This document shows positions 8,247 to 21,803 of a stretch of 64,000 nucleotides of DNA, piece by piece (the first letter of the stretch is position 1; every line of letters begins with the position of its first letter). The stretch is from an uncultured candidate division Zixibacteria bacterium (GTDB lineage Bacteria > Zixibacteria > MSB-5A5 > UBA10806), in contig CAWDFP010000007.1 in NCBI GenBank assembly GCA_963801605.1, positions 224,001-288,000 of the forward strand. Reading direction: 5' to 3'. The notes under the pieces were generated by a model, which had not been told where the DNA came from, did not search any database, and saw only the letters and a list, made by a program, of their open reading frames with translations. Position numbers and translations under genes: made by a program.

Positions 8247-9992
8247 TTATAATCTACCTCGCGCTGGCGGGCAGTCCTGGCAGCCCTGGGGAGCCGGTCC
8301 CATACCCTTCAGATAGCTTACGGAGTAGGTGACATCGAGGCCATTGAAAGAGCAAGAACCATTGGCATCGGCCGCGGAGTAGAATCGTCCCCAGACCGGG
8401 CAATTGCATTTAAAGGGAGGCTCGGGGCCAAATCCTTTGAGATAATTCACACTGTAAGATACATCGAGACCATTGAAATCGCGACTGCCGTTGGCATCAC
8501 CGGCCACATAAGGACAGCCAGGCATAAACATGACGCTGTTTGAGACGGTATCGCCGGGAGTAATATCGATATTTGTTAGAGTCGAATCCATGAAACCCGG
8601 ATAAGAAAGGGTCATCGAATAGTTGCCAGGGACTATATCCGAAATAAAATAATAACCATACTGATCAGTAGTATCGCCAATCGAAGTGCCATCGAGACAG
8701 ATAGCGACGCCGGAAATAGCTATCTGGTTTGTATCTATAACTACGCCCATTGCATATCCGGGGAATGTTAAGGTGGCTTCAACGAAAGTAGAACAACTAA
8801 CCTGGTTGCCAAAGCCATCTATTGCAGTTAAGGCGATAATATTAGTGCCCTCATTTGGATTAAAGCAAACCGTGCCTTTATCATAAGCTCCCTGATTTAC
8901 AAAAATTGTATCAAGATCGCCATTGGGATCTGTAGCGCCGAATCCGGTCAAGCAAACGGGCCGAGTATTGATATAGAGAAGAGATGTATCGCCGGGGCAG
9001 GTGACATCGGGAGGAAAATAAGCCAGCAGGTTGATATACTCCGGCCTTCTGCCCGGTTCCATATAGATGAGCTCGTAATCATCGACGGCACGCCAATTCC
9101 CCTGGGTGGAGGTTGGGAAAACCGAGGCTACGGCCGCGTAACCGCTAAGCGAATCATAATATGAATAAAGGGTATTAACGCGGCGAAATGCCCACATATT
9201 GTAGCCGTCGCTGAGGATGAAATTAAGGGATGCGCCGGCGCTATGATCGATCAGATCCACCAAGGCGTACCTCAAACCGAGTGCGTCTGCCAATTGACCT
9301 GTTCGATATTTTTAAGAAGGTATAAAAAGAAAAGCTCGGAGTCTGTTACTCTTGGAGGTGTCAGACGGATCGCATTCCGGCACACCGGAGCCGGTGGGAG
9401 GATTTTGCGAAAGGTACTCCTCCCCTATCAGATCGAGAAGAATTCGCTTGTTGACCGAACCATTATGCACAAAGGTCCAGGTTCGGCCATTTTTGTGACG
9501 CCAGAACGGATGAGGATTGGCAATGCTGTCACATCCGGAGCAACAACAACCCTGCGAGCAGTGCCTGACATGCGCCATCACGATACTGCACGACTCGCTA
9601 TCCAGCGAAAGAACCAGATTATCAAAATCAGGATCATCGGAAGCCCTGATCGGGCTACGGGCCAACAATGGTTCATCCCCCAAATTTCGATATGAGGCGA
9701 CGCCCCAGCCATCCGTATTAAACCATGACGATAGTATTTTCAGCGAATTAGGATAAGTTATTAAATCTTTTATCAGTATACTATCAGGCAAACCGTTCGA
9801 AATAGCTCCCCACAACCGGCAATTATGGTTTGGCTCATCTCCGTCGATACCCGAAATTCCAGTTTCAATTATTTTTGGCGAATCAGCAAAATCCGGAATC
9901 CATACAGTAAACATCACCATCGCAATAGGAACTGCAATTATAGCTGCAATTCTCATGAGTTCTCTTGAAAAATTTTCTTTCATTTTAAACAT
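8247..9992 (-). CDS. Exported class II glutamine amidotransferase-like (Ntn hydrolase, YafJ/EgtC-like) protein fused to a carboxypeptidase-regulatory-like domain and dockerin; split by two compensating indels
   Basis: ORFs 9312..9992 and 8247..9293 share a frame. Motifs CRLWG, NTDGWG, MAHVR, NPHPF, FVHNG, LNFILSDG. The conserved TDSELFFLYLL lies in the +1 frame across ~9345-9295. N-terminal hydrophobic segment; C-terminal GDANGS dockerin pair. Confidence 0.8.
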
Positions 9993-12864: not shown

Positions 12865-13383
12865 TTAATTAGTCTCTCTAAAACGCAGGACGGAAAATGT
12901 CCAAATAATAATCGCCAGGCCCATCAGCGCAGTTAGAAGCACCGGCGATAGAGCAGCCTTGTTTAAATACGAAACTACGGATTCCCTGGTTATACCCATA
13001 GAACTCGAGAAGCCCCAGATTCGATTTAATTCGTCTGCAGTTTTAGCCATGCCGCCGATAATAATTTTTTGGTTGGCCATTGTAAGCGCAATAATGATTA
13101 AATATATCGCTCCCAATAGAGCCAATCGAATTCTGTTAACGATTGCCATTGGGCTGACAATTTTAGCCTCCAGCCTCACCGCCTTCATTACATTTACCGC
13201 TATCGATTCAGGAGCCGAACTCGGTAGAAGCGAGTTAAAAGCGTTTTCGGCGCCAGTTTCAAGCATCCCCAATTTCCGGCATGACTCGCACGATTCGATG
13301 TGAGCCATAAAAGCATTATGATCGTATACGGCATCAAGCGGTGATGCCAGAATTCTTTCAATGTCATCACAACTATACTGCAT
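12865..13383 (-). CDS. Putative zinc-finger membrane anti-sigma factor
   Basis: HIESCESC (HxxxCxxC ZAS motif), two hydrophobic helices, overlaps the 3' end of the ECF sigma gene. Confidence 0.75.
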   Translation of the reverse strand: MQYSCDDIERILASPLDAVYDHNAFMAHIESCESCRKLGMLETGAENAFNSLLPSSAPESIAVNVMKAVRLEAKIVSPMAIVNRIRLALLGAIYLIIIALTMANQKIIIGGMAKTADELNRIWGFSSSMGITRESVVSYLNKAALSPVLLTALMGLAIIIWTFSVLRFRETN

Positions 13384-13981
13384 TATTTCCCCACAATTTC
13401 CTTAATTCGTGTTTAGCTCTGAATAACCTGACCTTTACAGTCCCAATCGGGCAGTTCAGGATTTCGGCAATTTCCTCATACTTAAGGTCATCATAATAAT
13501 GGAAAATGATGACTGCCTTCAATTCCGGATTAAGTTTATCGATCAATTTTCGAAGATAATATTTGGCCGGGTGATGAACAGAATTATGATTCTCAATTTC
13601 CCGAGTATTATCCTCGATAGATTCCATATTATTCGGCATTTTCTTTATATGCGTCATCGACGTATTATAGGCAATTCGGTATAGCCAGGTTTTAAAGCCT
13701 GATTTTCTCTCGAAATGACTCAAGGCTCGGTATGCCCGCAGGAATACCTCCTGGGAAACATCCCTGGCTTCGTCCTCCGACTTAACCAGGCCCCTGGCCA
13801 GAGTAAACACAAAATCCTCATATCTTCTGACCAGGATACTAAAAGCCTCACTATCTCCGTTGGCAACAAAACCGATTATCTCCTCATCGTAATAATAATC
13901 GCTTGAGGCTCTGGCCCTGACGGCGCCAGTGCGTCTTAAAAAGGTTTTTGCCAGCGATGTAACGTAAGCCTCATTGCTCAT
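13373..13981 (-). CDS. ECF-family RNA polymerase sigma factor
   Basis: DVSQEVFLRAY, FKTWLYRIAYN (region 2), YEEIAEILNCPIGTVKVRLFRAK (region 4). Confidence 0.93.
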   Translation of the reverse strand: MSNEAYVTSLAKTFLRRTGAVRARASSDYYYDEEIIGFVANGDSEAFSILVRRYEDFVFTLARGLVKSEDEARDVSQEVFLRAYRALSHFERKSGFKTWLYRIAYNTSMTHIKKMPNNMESIEDNTREIENHNSVHHPAKYYLRKLIDKLNPELKAVIIFHYYDDLKYEEIAEILNCPIGTVKVRLFRAKHELRKLWGNNAV

Positions 13982-14096
13982 TTTTATCCCTTTGACCTTA
14001 TATACGATTAATTTGTTTCAATGGGTGCGCCTTATTTTTTTGAAACAATCCGCGCTATTCCGAGGTCAAAGCGACAAAAGAACGAATGGAGGAATA

Positions 14097-14477
14097 ATGT
14101 GGCAGGGAGACCCAAATATCGGCGTAGTAATGATAATCATGGTCATCTTTTGTTCGATGGCCGCAGTGCCAATTCTAATCGGGCTGCTAATCTTCAACAA
14201 CGCCAAAAAGAAACGCGAAGCGGAATTAATGAAATTATCGGTTGAGAAGGGATTACCAATCCCGATTTTCCCAGAAAAGCATTCCATTTACGGCACTCTT
14301 AAGGCCGGCCTTATTTGGATCGCGGTCGGAATCGGGATAATCCTGATGGTTGCAATTGAAAGTGAAGGCCGTATGGAAGGCGTTTCCCTGGGATTCCTTC
14401 CGATCCTGGTAGGTGTTGCCCTTATAATCAGTTGGAAACTGGAGATTCGTGAAGCCAGGAAAACCTCGTCTGAATAA
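14097..14477 (+). CDS. Small membrane protein (DUF6249-like), divergent from the ECF sigma gene
   Basis: ATG 14097 with GGAGGA RBS; TM-'REAELMKLSVEKG'-'LKAGLIWIAVGIG'-TM pattern. Confidence 0.65.
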   Translation: MWQGDPNIGVVMIIMVIFCSMAAVPILIGLLIFNNAKKKREAELMKLSVEKGLPIPIFPEKHSIYGTLKAGLIWIAVGIGIILMVAIESEGRMEGVSLGFLPILVGVALIISWKLEIREARKTSSE

Positions 14478-14514: not shown

Positions 14515-14552
14515 AACCGCCGGATCAATAGCAATCCGGCGGTTACTTTTTT
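14515..14552. terminator. Intrinsic terminator, probably bidirectional
   Basis: AACCGCCGGAT-8 nt-ATCCGGCGGTT followed by a T-run, between convergent genes. Confidence 0.8.
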
Positions 14553-14553
14553 A

Positions 14554-14691
14554 TTAATCGGATTTTTTATCGCTCCCACCGGGAGCCTTAGGGCGAACGC
14601 TTCAGGTTGGGATTCCGAATTTTGGCAGGATATATCGGGATACGGCAAACCAAATTAGGATGATTGCCAATATTTCAAGTAATTCTTTCAT
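14554..14691 (-). CDS. Unannotated small membrane protein: 29 aa if UGA is stop, 45 aa candidate selenoprotein if UGA30 is Sec
   Basis: AGGTGG RBS, MKELLEILAIILIWFAVSRYILPKFGIPT-TGA(14602-14604)-SVRPKAPGGSDKKSD-TAA TAA; hairpin GCTCCC-GGT-GGGAGC begins 15 nt after the UGA. Confidence 0.6.
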
Positions 14692-14738
14692 GCTAACCAC
14701 CTATCTAATTAAATACCATATACTTACGATTGCTCCGT

Positions 14739-15884
14739 TTATTCGATCTCCTTAAGAATATTTCGTGAGATAACCAGCCGCTGAATTTCGGATGTCCCTT
14801 CCCCTATCTCGCAAAGCTTTAAGTCGCGATGCATCCGTTCCACCGGGTAGCGAGAGCCATAGCCCTCAGCCCCTAAGATCATCATTGCCTGGTAGGTAAC
14901 GAAATTTCCTATCTCCGATGCGTATAGTTTGGCCATAGCGGCCTCGTTTGTAAACCTGCGCTTGCCCTCATCTTTGAGGATCGCGGGATGATAAACCAGA
15001 TGACGGGCGGCCTGAAGATAGGTCGCCATATCAGCCAACTTAAAACCAACCGCTTGAAAATCTGCAATTGGCTCTCCGAATTGCTCATGATGTTTAGCAT
15101 ACTTGATAGCTACATCGTACGCACCCTGAGCCAAACCAAGCGCCATTGCCGCAATTGAAATTCGGCCGCCGTCAAGCGTCATCATAAACTGCTTGAAACC
15201 GGAGCCAATATCGCCCATCAAATCACTCGAAGGGATAAAACAATCGTCAAAATGCAATACACGGGTATCGGAGCCCCTAACGCCAAGTTTATTTTCCTTT
15301 TTGCCAATCGAAAAACCCTTAGCTCCCGATTTGATGATAAAGGATGAAATAGCATGAGTGTCTTTGGCGTGCGATGTTCTGGCGGTAAATACAATGGTCG
15401 AGGCTAACCCGCCATTGGTGATCCAGCATTTGGAGCCATTAACCTTGAATCCACCATCGACCTGTTCTGCGAAAGTCCTGGTGCCTCCGGCATCCGAACC
15501 TGCTCCCGGTTCCGATAAACCAAACGCCGCCAACTTACCGCCGGTGGCAATTTCGGGAAGGTATTTGCTCTTTTGATCTTCAGTACCGAAAGCATAGATC
15601 GGCCAGCAACCGAGAGAATTATGCGCCGCCAGGATAATGCCGCTTGATCCGCAGACGCGAGATACCTCTTCAACAGCAATGATATAAGTCAGGGTATCAA
15701 CAAATGTCCCGCCATATTTGGAGGGTACCGTCATACCCAATAGGCCAAGTTCATTCATTTTGCCTATGAGATGTTCGGGGTAATGCTGATCCTCATCCAT
15801 CTTAGCGGCGTAAGGCGCGATTTCACGCTCGGCAAACTCCCTGATTTGAGAGCGAAACTTCTCCTGCTTTTCGGTCGTCCACAT
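14739..15884 (-). CDS. Acyl-CoA dehydrogenase (short/branched-chain type)
   Basis: FGLSEPGAGSDA, NGSKCWITNG, GGRISIAA, EIGEGTSEIQR. Confidence 0.95.
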   Translation of the reverse strand: MWTTEKQEKFRSQIREFAEREIAPYAAKMDEDQHYPEHLIGKMNELGLLGMTVPSKYGGTFVDTLTYIIAVEEVSRVCGSSGIILAAHNSLGCWPIYAFGTEDQKSKYLPEIATGGKLAAFGLSEPGAGSDAGGTRTFAEQVDGGFKVNGSKCWITNGGLASTIVFTARTSHAKDTHAISSFIIKSGAKGFSIGKKENKLGVRGSDTRVLHFDDCFIPSSDLMGDIGSGFKQFMMTLDGGRISIAAMALGLAQGAYDVAIKYAKHHEQFGEPIADFQAVGFKLADMATYLQAARHLVYHPAILKDEGKRRFTNEAAMAKLYASEIGNFVTYQAMMILGAEGYGSRYPVERMHRDLKLCEIGEGTSEIQRLVISRNILKEIE

Positions 15885-15903: not shown

Positions 15904-17049
15904 CTACTTTTTTCCCAGATTACGATAGATAACCATCCTCTGGGCTTCCGATGTCCCCTCGTATATTTCTGTAACGCGAGCATCGCGGAAATAACGCTCA
16001 ACAGGGTACTCCTTGACATAGCCATAGCCGCCGTGAATCTGAACAGCCTGATTGACCACCCAGTTAGCGGCTTCGGAGGCAAATAGCTTCGCCATCGAAC
16101 AATATTTGGATGCCTCTCGTCCAATCCTATCTTTCTTCCAGGCAGCCGAATGAATTAATAAACGAGCCGCCTCAATCTTGAGCGCCATATCGGCCAACTT
16201 GAATTGGATGGCCTGGAAACTGGCAATCGGCTGATCGAACTGCACTCTTTCCTGCGCATACTTATAAGCTTCTTCATAGGCCGCCTGAGCTATGCCCAAT
16301 GCCTGGGCTGCAATCCCAATTCGGCCGCCATCGAGAAGCGATAGGGCAATTTTAAAGCCCTGGTTTTTTTCGCCGATCAGGTTTCCCTTGGGCACAGCGC
16401 AATCGGTAAACATTACCTGACGAGTATCCGATGCCTTCAAGCCCATCTTTTTCTCTTTGGCGCCCAGACTCATCCCCGGCGTATCTTTATCGACTATCAG
16501 ACAGGAAACTCCCTTTGAGCCTTTGGAACGATCTGTAGAGACAAAAACAACATACATCCCGGCTAAACCCGCTGACGTTACCCAGGATTTGGTGCCGTTA
16601 AGTACGAAGTTATCTCCCTTTTCCATCGCTTGACAGGTAAGCGAGCCGGCATCCGTGCCTGAACCAGGCTCAGAAAGACAGTAGGAACCAAACAATTCGC
16701 CCGTCGCCATCCTGGGCAGATATTTATCTTTGAGACAGTCAGCGCCCCATTCGAGAATAGCCTTGCAACACAGGGAATTATGCACTGAAAGCCCAACCAT
16801 TACACCCGCTGATCCCCGAGCCAACTCCTCCATGGCGCAGGCATAGGATAGCGTATCGAGATCGAGGCCGCCGTATTTCTCGGGAAGCAGCATTCCGAAA
16901 TATCCCAGCTTTGCTAACTCACTGTAAATTTCCGGAGGGACTTTTTCCTCTTCATCCATTTTCTCGGCTATCGGCATGAGCTTTTTTTCGGCAAACTCCC
17001 GAGCCGCATCACGCATTAAAATCTGATCTTCGCCTAATTCAAAATCCAT
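15904..17049 (-). CDS. Acyl-CoA (butyryl-CoA-like) dehydrogenase
   Basis: YCLSEPGSGTDA, GGRIGIAAQALG, QIHGGYGY, EIYEGTSEAQR; likely start MDFELG. Confidence 0.95.
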   Translation of the reverse strand: MDFELGEDQILMRDAAREFAEKKLMPIAEKMDEEEKVPPEIYSELAKLGYFGMLLPEKYGGLDLDTLSYACAMEELARGSAGVMVGLSVHNSLCCKAILEWGADCLKDKYLPRMATGELFGSYCLSEPGSGTDAGSLTCQAMEKGDNFVLNGTKSWVTSAGLAGMYVVFVSTDRSKGSKGVSCLIVDKDTPGMSLGAKEKKMGLKASDTRQVMFTDCAVPKGNLIGEKNQGFKIALSLLDGGRIGIAAQALGIAQAAYEEAYKYAQERVQFDQPIASFQAIQFKLADMALKIEAARLLIHSAAWKKDRIGREASKYCSMAKLFASEAANWVVNQAVQIHGGYGYVKEYPVERYFRDARVTEIYEGTSEAQRMVIYRNLGKK

Positions 17050-17060
17050 ATTATTCCCTC

Positions 17061-17915
17061 TCACTTCTCGTATGTATAGAAGCCTCGTCCGGTTTTACGT
17101 CCCAGATAACCGGCCTGTACCATTTTCTTTAGAAGCGGGCACGGACGGTACTTCGAATCCGAATAGCCCTCATAAAGGACATTCATGATATCGAGGCACA
17201 CGTCAAGTCCGATAAAATCGGCCAGAGTCAACGGGCCCATGGGATGATTCATCCCCAGTTTCATGACTGTATCAATCGATTCCTTGGTTGCTACACCTTC
17301 CATCAGGCAGCAAATTGCTTCATTTATCATGGGTATTAACACCCTATTAGAAATGAAACCCGGATAATCGTTGACCTCCACCGGCGTTTTTCCCAACTTT
17401 ATGCAAACATCCTTGATAATTTTCGAGGTTTCATCAGAAGTTGCAATTCCCCGGATAAGCTCAACAAGCTTCATCATCGGGACCGGGTTCATGAAATGCA
17501 TCCCAATAACTTTGTCAGCACGCTTGGTTTTTGCGGCAATCCCGGTTACCGAAAGGGAGGAAGTATTTGATGCCAGAATCGTTTCGGGTCTGCAAATCAC
17601 GTCTAATTTGGAGAATATATCGGTTTTGGCGCTCATATTTTCGAACACGGCCTCGATAACCAGGTCTCCCGCGCAGGCATCTTCAAGCCTAATCGAGGTG
17701 CCAATCCTTCCAATCGTGGCGGCTACATCGCCAGGCTGTATTGTTCCCTTTTGGGCTTGCCGTTCCAGATTTTTCTTGATCGTCCCCAGGGCGCGGTCAA
17801 TAAATTCCTGCTTGATATCGATCAGAAGAACCTCAAACCCGCTCTGGGCACAAACGTGGGCTATCCCGTTTCCCATCGTACCACTGCCAACTACCACCAC
17901 TTTTTTTAATGCCAT
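17061..17915 (-). CDS. hbd: 3-hydroxybutyryl-CoA dehydrogenase
   Basis: [40 protein letters not shown]. Confidence 0.95.
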
Positions 17916-21034: not shown

Positions 21035-21803
21035 TTACTTCTGATCTTTTTTCTGCCCTATTATCACCAGCATATCTTTGCATTTGTTAGCCCATTCGCC
21101 CGCAGGCTCCTTTTCGAGATAGCGGTTTATCCAGCCTTCAGCGTCATTATACTTCCCGCTATCGAAGTAAAGCTGTCCAAGCATATAAATCGCCTCTGGC
21201 ATGGAGCCTACCTTGACAGCATCCATGAAACTTGCTTTCGGCCTCGGTGGTATCGCCGGTGATAAAAGCTATCAATCCCAATCCGTAATAGGCGCGCGGA
21301 TAAGTGGCATCGACAGCAATTGCCATATCCCAGTATTTTTTGGCATTGGAATAATCGCCGCGCATATAATAAATGGTTGCCAGATTATTGTAAGACCGAG
21401 GATAAAGATAATCGATCCGGGAAGCCTTATCATACCAATTCAGGGCTTCATCCAGATTTTTAGCGATAAAATAGATATTCCCGATCGACTGGTAAGCATC
21501 CACATCTTTGGGATTAAAAACGATGGCGCCTTCATAGTTGGAAACTGCGGCGGAATCATCACCCACCTGCTGATAGCAAACGGCAATTTCATGATAGGCC
21601 TGGGCAAAATTGGCCTGAATTTTGATAGCTTTCCTATAAAGTGGAATAGCCTTCTTGGGAAGATTTTGTTCAAAGTAGGCATGTGCCTGATTATAATATT
21701 CCAGGTAACGAGGCTGTTGCCCCGGTTTTGGCCCGCAAGAGATAAAACCTGAAAATCCGCTAACTAACACCATAGCGATTGCGAATAATATCATTCTCTT
21801 CAT
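21035..21803 (-). CDS. TPR-repeat lipoprotein; +1 frameshift near 21228
   Basis: FIS-C lipobox and tandem TPR repeats; ORFs 21159..21803 and 21035..21226 join by removing one base. Confidence 0.8.

Follow-up and report, generated by a model that had tools for sequence, protein, structure and literature searches.

A 45-codon gene with an in-frame UGA in a Zixibacteria genome is a cysteine-less variant of a predicted, uncharacterised selenoprotein family

A family of predicted selenoproteins labelled 'Unknown (Geobacter lovleyi)' was counted in 5 organisms out of more than 5,200 genomes in 2016 (PMC5029168, Table S3, a source available in part), and six sequences of the Geobacter lovleyi hypothetical family, including a Geobacter sulfurreducens member, were printed in 2025 (PMC12013277, Data S1); the 2016 label and the 2025 sequences are joined here by their shared name, as the 2016 table prints no sequence. 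The printed proteins are about 50 residues long, with an N-terminal hydrophobic helix, the motif L-P-[RK]-x-G-[VI]-x-T before the selenocysteine (Sec, U), a short charged tail and, in all six, a U-x4-C arrangement. The label is absent from deep-Sep Table S1 and from the accessible part of the main text of a 2022 review (PMC9312934); nor is the family named in the 119-entry Table 1 of the partly accessible 2026 review (PMC13188914) or mentioned in the accessible part of PMC2398784. Table S2 of BSepDB (PMC13326102) or Haft and Tolstoy (2025), both sources available in part, may list it. No functional study of the family was found in the literature.

Single-pass membrane selenoproteins are also found in eukaryotes, where SELENOK and SELENOS bear Sec near the C-terminus in a disordered cytosolic tail and have the SECIS in the 3' UTR. 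Their likeness to the protein described here, in which Sec lies some 7 residues from the membrane, is an analogy only. The FeoB-associated Cys-rich membrane proteins (PF12669), of which we know of no Sec form, likewise consist of a single helix and a short Cys-containing tail. They differ in that the similarity is not significant (PF12669 matched 2 of 50 members of the present family, best E 0.14) and in that no Feo genes occur in the scanned neighbours here.

The gene lies in the window, the whole 64,000-nucleotide stretch of DNA that was analysed, and has the following features and surroundings.

14554-14691, minus strand: 45-codon gene including the first of its two stops; occurs once in the genome and is predicted to encode a selenoprotein of the 'Geobacter lovleyi hypothetical' family
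14697-14702, minus strand: ribosome-binding site AGGTGG, separated from the ATG by 5 nt, seen in the sequence
14626-14682, minus strand: predicted transmembrane helix, residues about 4-22; Kyte-Doolittle peak 2.07, AlphaFold helix 2-24
14605-14625, minus strand: family signature P-x-x-G-x-x-T directly before the TGA, with P23 and G26 invariant
14602-14604, minus strand: in-frame TGA, predicted selenocysteine 30; TGA in 136/136 phylum homologs, Cys in 36 database homologs
14572-14586, minus strand: bacterial SECIS-like hairpin of 6 bp with a GGU loop; the distance from the UGA to the loop G is 21 nt, against 23 nt in most relatives
14557-14601, minus strand: 15-codon charged tail without Cys; Lys at U+5, where most relatives have Cys
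14551-14556, minus strand: double stop TAA TAA, seen in the sequence
14515-14544, strand not assigned: intrinsic-terminator-like hairpin common to this gene and the convergent DUF6249 gene
14739-15884, minus strand: acyl-CoA dehydrogenase gene immediately upstream (context), a neighbour in this bacterial family only
15904-17064, minus strand: second acyl-CoA dehydrogenase gene (context)
17061-17915, minus strand: 3-hydroxyacyl-CoA dehydrogenase gene (context)

Translation of the minus-strand ORF 14691-14554 returned what the earlier note had described, namely 29 residues, a TGA at 14604-14602, 15 further codons and TAA TAA. The ribosome-binding site (14702-14697) and the 47 nt between the acyl-CoA dehydrogenase stop and the ATG were also as claimed. 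The hairpin at 14586-14572 (GCUCCC-GGU-GGGAGC) does have a perfect 6-bp stem and a GGU loop, with a UGA-to-loop spacing of 21 nt, but it is not all-GC as had been stated, since five pairs are G-C and one is U-A. The proposal that a 45-residue single-helix selenoprotein had been overlooked by gene callers is supported, 88 database proteins stopping just before the TGA codon, whereas its description as a new selenoprotein is not, the family being listed already as a predicted selenoprotein in the two supplements cited above.

The terminator-like hairpin was called on the plus strand only; on the minus strand TTTGATTT comes after the G-C stem, so that the terminator is plausibly bidirectional. 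A plus-strand DUF6249 membrane protein gene (13974-14477) converges on it, and an ECF sigma factor gene (13373-13981) and a probable anti-sigma factor gene (12865-13383), both on the minus strand, are divergent from the DUF6249 gene. A role as an attenuator was dropped for this locus because the terminator and the convergent gene come after it.

The gene does not found a new family but is a Cys-less variant of one already predicted, which is uncharacterised and under-counted. In length, hydrophobic helix, motif before U and short charged tail it agrees with the printed entries; it is classed as a variant because the U-x4-C of all six is absent here, neither this protein nor its nine relatives in the same bacterial family having a cysteine at positions +3 to +12. 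A profile containing this protein gave 55 matches in the Geobacter family (E 2e-19 to 7e-10), and these homologs show the same motif as the printed G. sulfurreducens entry when the two are compared by eye. Two further differences from the rest of the family are the SECIS loop at 21 nt, mostly 23 nt elsewhere, and the position of the gene behind an acyl-CoA dehydrogenase gene. No Pfam family, PF12669 included, scored above cut-off, and the weak NCBIfam matches of 16 and 50 members contained no selenoprotein model and none above cut-off. The best Pfam and PDB sequence matches, to a mycobacterial arabinosyltransferase helix, were rejected as chance (single-member E 0.002; PDB E 0.08 or worse). 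No match to the single ORF came from a word-indexed protein search; a full HMMER scan gave five proteins.

Comparison of homologous sequences makes it very probable that the UGA at codon 30 is read as selenocysteine. The seed for this comparison consisted of 16 homologs from 61 related genomes (18 matches, two of them false), and its alignment ended at the residue before the TGA; since the profile built from it stops there, the search of 285 genomes of the phylum could favour no codon at the TGA position. It produced 138 matches in 136 of the 285 genomes. All 138 were examined, and 136 are family members, the other two being second matches without the family motif. TGA is the first in-frame stop after P-x-x-G in every one of the 136 homologs, and TAA or TAG never is. 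The TGA column is exact in 120 of 130 homologs and shifted by one or two codons in the other 10, and six further homologs also have TGA. At the terminal stops of the same 136 genes the codons vary (TAA 61, TGA 45, TAG 30), after tails of 12-43 codons.

Other groups were searched with the full-length profile, with stops read through. The phylum of the Polarisedimenticolia-titled record gave 69 matches in 68/221 genomes (64 with TGA inside the match, four with TGA just past it and one doubtful), the family of the Geobacter-titled record gave 55 matches, all with TGA, in 52/61 genomes, and the class of the Spirochaetes-titled record gave 78 matches, 76 with TGA and two with Cys, in 65/122 genomes. 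None of these 202 matches contains TAA or TAG, a count based on codon-by-codon inspection of 30 to 35 loci in each group and on the number of stops in the remainder. Metagenomes contributed 23 loci, of which 22 have TGA and one is false. Among 126 database homologs, 88 end exactly at the TGA position, 36 have Cys there and one each has Leu and Arg; the 88 shortened proteins and the Planctomycete Cys forms are known from protein records alone. Six rows without the family motif were left out (L037, L038, L189, L201, L243 and L244), as was L236, a doubtful, weak match inside a long ORF with TGC. The Arg occurs in a near-identical homolog of a TGA form (P0011, compared with L072) and the Leu in another protein (P0004); each is one base from TGA, and these could be read errors or rare losses.

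Genomic Cys-for-Sec forms number two, both TGC. Both retain a hairpin where the SECIS would be, which suggests that Sec gave way to Cys recently. One of the two genomes has selA and tRNA-Sec, and the other showed no selA, tRNA-Sec or selB. Loci L190 and L191 on the one hand and L194 on the other are a closely related Sec/Cys pair whose gene surroundings are the same.

The consensus SECIS model allows a spacing of 16-37 nt and requires a stem energy of -7.5 kcal/mol or lower (PMC13188914, section 5, a source available in part). The hairpin described here agrees with the bacterial in-ORF model in its 3-nt loop starting with GG, its 6-bp stem, its spacing of 21 nt and its energy of -9.1 kcal/mol, and differs from it in that no lower stem is predicted. 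Taken alone, its stability is ordinary (z -0.3 to +0.2 against shuffles, for pieces of 40-60 nt). Of the 365 TGA stops that end long ORFs in this genome, only 4 are followed by a stem of at least six Watson-Crick pairs whose G-loop is 16-37 nt away, as are 25 of 1235 stops of all kinds. Among the phylum homologs, a G-loop hairpin follows the TGA in 125/136 genes compared with 19/136 after the terminal stops of the same genes; the loop G is 23 nt from the TGA in 87/136, and spacings of 21 or 24 nt are also seen. In a gap-free alignment of 35 sequences, picked by hand for diversity among those with the 23-nt spacing, the loop G is invariant and compensatory changes occur in all six stem pairs, with pairing in 82% of cells as against 39-61% in slid controls. 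Eleven close relatives show compensatory changes in four of seven hairpin pairs, the covariation counts in both sets being inflated by the relatedness of the sequences. A conserved hairpin downstream of the TGA, which the earlier note had proposed looking for, is therefore present in homologs as a co-varying G-loop structure. In phylum family f13 (L048, L054, a subset of L058-L066, L067 and L087) the SECIS loop lies 35-38 nt after the UGA, at or slightly past the 37-nt limit of the consensus model.

The open frame beyond the TGA is less informative. Frames open for at least 12 codons follow 161 of the 365 long-ORF TGA stops in this genome, so that a 15-codon open tail alone proves nothing, and the +1 frame is likewise open for at least 12 codons in 100/130 phylum homologs. 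A cysteine is present at U+5 in 87/130 phylum homologs and in 30/30 Geobacter-family loci, and its retention in the phylum with both codons (TGT 48, TGC 39) argues for selection at the protein level beyond the TGA.

The Sec machinery on which the earlier proposal depends is present in the host genome (G000, 87% complete), with tRNA-Sec, selD, selA and a selB that is frameshifted in this assembly. A cluster at 1293256-1299700 of contig C6 contains tRNA-Sec, a membrane/TPR protein gene, selD, selA and selB (L001, L002, L005, L010 and L013); selA scores over the cut-off, and selD carries an in-frame TGA of its own, followed at 32 nt by the loop of a hairpin. A single 1-nt frameshift near C6:1298440 splits selB. 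The gene is intact in 5/5 relatives (two genomes of the same genus and three of the same family), and a tblastn comparison found frameshifts in 12 of 42 conserved regions of the host assembly (two of the 12 being one site), so that the break is likely to be an assembly error; the findings suggest an unpolished long-read assembly. The window ORFs 9312-9992, 8247-9293 and 21159-21803 may also be split or cut by assembly frameshifts.

In the phylum of the Polarisedimenticolia-titled record selA is present in 174/221 genomes, a tally that counts one genome flagged as unpublished (G312), and in 66 of the 67 genomes with the TGA form, the exception having selB and tRNA-Sec. In the phylum of the host nearly every genome has selA (264/285), so that its correlation with the gene is uninformative there; selA was not found in seven of the 136 gene-bearing genomes (81-93% complete), and tRNA-Sec is present in two of the four of these that were checked. 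A second likely selenoprotein gene of the host lies at C6:3220 on the plus strand; its TGA, in the context K-A-S-U-G-C, precedes 284 open codons and has a hairpin of 7 bp 20 nt downstream. This context is similar to the UGC motif that a table of the 2026 review (PMC13188914, available in part) gives for DUF1573-domain selenoproteins.

Within the bacterial family of the host the signals beyond the TGA are fewer. This protein has Lys at +5 and no cysteine anywhere in its tail; two of the ten family members have Cys at +1 and five have it later or at the tail end. The loop is at about 21 nt in this family rather than mostly 23 nt, which puts the hairpin in a different reading frame. Mismatches in codons +1 to +6 are not biased towards synonymous changes (0.50/0.48/0.57 at the three codon positions) and no tail residue is conserved, so that the case for read-through in this branch consists of TGA conservation and the hairpin. 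The missing protein-level constraint on codons +1 to +6 is the main weakness of read-through in this branch, and it would fit a UGA that is the plain stop of a 29-residue membrane peptide, with the hairpin as a relic, a pause or a terminator element. The frameshifted selB of this assembly and the ordinary stability of the hairpin point the same way. However, TGA is kept in 10/10 family members while their terminal stops vary (TAA 4, TAG 1, TGA 5), the tail is open for 12-21 codons in all ten, the stem changes among close relatives are compensatory and selB is intact in the relatives, which leaves a plain stop highly improbable.

In all ten members of this bacterial family the gene is directly behind an acyl-CoA dehydrogenase gene, and the layout makes co-transcription with hbd-acd-acd plausible. 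The protein might accordingly be a partner of these enzymes, for example as a membrane tether or in the protection of electron flow, and a CoA-binding-domain (YccU-type) gene is upstream in 12/12 f13 and 24/29 f18 loci. Against such a partnership, an acyl-CoA dehydrogenase neighbour was found in 0/126 other phylum members and 0/97 loci of other groups, most of the phylum loci being about 0.9 kb long. The host also keeps a trxA-yccU(CoA-binding)-osmC-rhomboid cluster at C6:974654-976824, in which the usual site of the gene is a gap of about 290 nt with a terminator-like hairpin and no gene remnant. With this cluster kept, its usual site empty and a single gene copy in the genome, the acyl-CoA dehydrogenase adjacency is best read as one relocation. 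The hbd-acd-acd neighbourhood, confined to one bacterial family, says little about function, and the link appears secondary since in most of the phylum the gene is in a thioredoxin-rhomboid cluster; a functional partnership with the upstream enzymes is the least probable of the readings considered.

A thioredoxin gene is adjacent to or near the gene in 64/66 members of phylum family f9, and adjacent in 8/34, 4/22 and further loci elsewhere, in differing gene orders. It is upstream in the phylum of the host and in L178, L179 and L185, and downstream in L181 and eight related loci of the phylum of the Polarisedimenticolia-titled record. An adjacent thioredoxin gene was found in 0/30 Geobacter-family loci. 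A rhomboid protease gene is downstream in 54/66 f9 and 12/12 f13 loci and osmC is downstream in others; OsmC, ArsR, cysteine desulfurase-type and DUF302 genes recur as neighbours. No neighbour is universal across the groups, in which related loci are not independent; the nearest-ORF scans took in 75/112 upstream and 74/119 downstream candidates.

Small accessory subunits of larger membrane proteins, such as KdpF, AcrZ and CydX, offer another analogy, in which Sec would act as a redox switch and selenium supply could be reflected in the proportion of 29-mer to 45-mer. The clustering of conserved residues at the helix end (W14, P23, G26 and T29) would suit such a subunit, as would a tail that is free in sequence and even shifts in frame with respect to the hairpin, whose loop G is found at 21, 23 or 24 nt, and the rhomboid protease gene that so often follows in f9 and f13. 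However, no partner gene accompanies the gene across phyla, the rhomboid adjacency is limited to one phylum and missing in this bacterial family, and the Cys forms yield only the long product. An accessory subunit is therefore quite unlikely, though less so than a plain stop.

The whole explanation that is favoured, with somewhat better than even confidence and on sequence comparison, is a membrane-tethered selenoprotein with Sec at the cytoplasmic face, acting as a redox-active selenol. In 121/135 phylum members and in nearly all other homologs, the stretch following the helix is more positively charged than the stretch preceding it. Charge distribution is related to membrane topology by the positive-inside rule, according to which the protein would be oriented N-out/C-in with Sec on the cytoplasmic side. 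An AlphaFold model consists of one helix (2-24) and coil (pTM 0.42), and Foldseek found no structural match to it; a natural Cys homolog, searched against the ESM Atlas, gave one unnamed cluster at 0.88, which is a lead only.

Given recoding, a redox role is likely, being indicated by the exchange of Sec and Cys and by the U-x4-C pair, and the 2026 review states that most uncharacterised selenoproteins probably have redox functions (PMC13188914, available in part). The established biology of bacterial Sec insertion suggests that SelB would bind the hairpin and bring Sec-tRNA to the UGA. The single helix would then anchor the protein, the P-x-x-G kink would set Sec at the membrane surface, and the disordered tail may serve mainly to carry the SECIS. 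The weakest step is the next, in which the U-x4-C of most relatives would form a selenenyl-sulfide upon oxidation or sulfur uptake, to be re-reduced by thioredoxin. As the partner, thioredoxin is proposed tentatively, at rather less than even confidence. In the branch without the U+5 Cys, an oxidised selenol might be resolved by an outside thiol, such as thioredoxin, CoA or a second copy of the protein.

The same anatomy, a single helix and then a short Cys-bearing tail, would also suit a membrane ligand for a metal or Fe-S cluster, formed by Sec and the nearby Cys where present, as in the FeoB-associated Cys-rich membrane proteins. Several Cys forms have C-x4-C-C or additional Cys, and ArsR-type regulators adjoin the gene in several unrelated loci. 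The match of PF12669 to two of 50 members points in this direction but, at E 0.14, is not significant; all tail Cys are absent in 4/10 members of this bacterial family and 7/66 of f9, leaving a single ligand, and no metal transporter recurs as a same-strand neighbour. A ligand role is thus unlikely, although it is the most probable of the alternatives to the redox-active selenol. A more extended and speculative form of the redox reading, which is doubtful, is that this family, uncatalogued yet among the most widespread of bacterial selenoproteins, provides a minimal membrane selenol coupling cytoplasmic thioredoxin, or a CoA thiol, to sulfur or redox chemistry at the membrane; in the present branch Sec alone would be a one-residue active site on a 45-residue scaffold.

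The gene does not represent a new kind of system. The family is found in 136/285, 67/221, 52/61 and 65/122 genomes of the four bacterial groups, almost always with TGA, and databases carry it mainly as a stub of 29-31 residues. With such stubs, no Pfam or NCBIfam model and no entry in the partly accessible catalogue of the 2026 review, the selenoproteome counts of these lineages are likely to be one short. The question whether the U-x4-C pair is needed can be put to the Cys-less branch, which amounts to a natural mutant. G. sulfurreducens is genetically tractable, and since a printed member of the family is encoded there, its function is directly testable.
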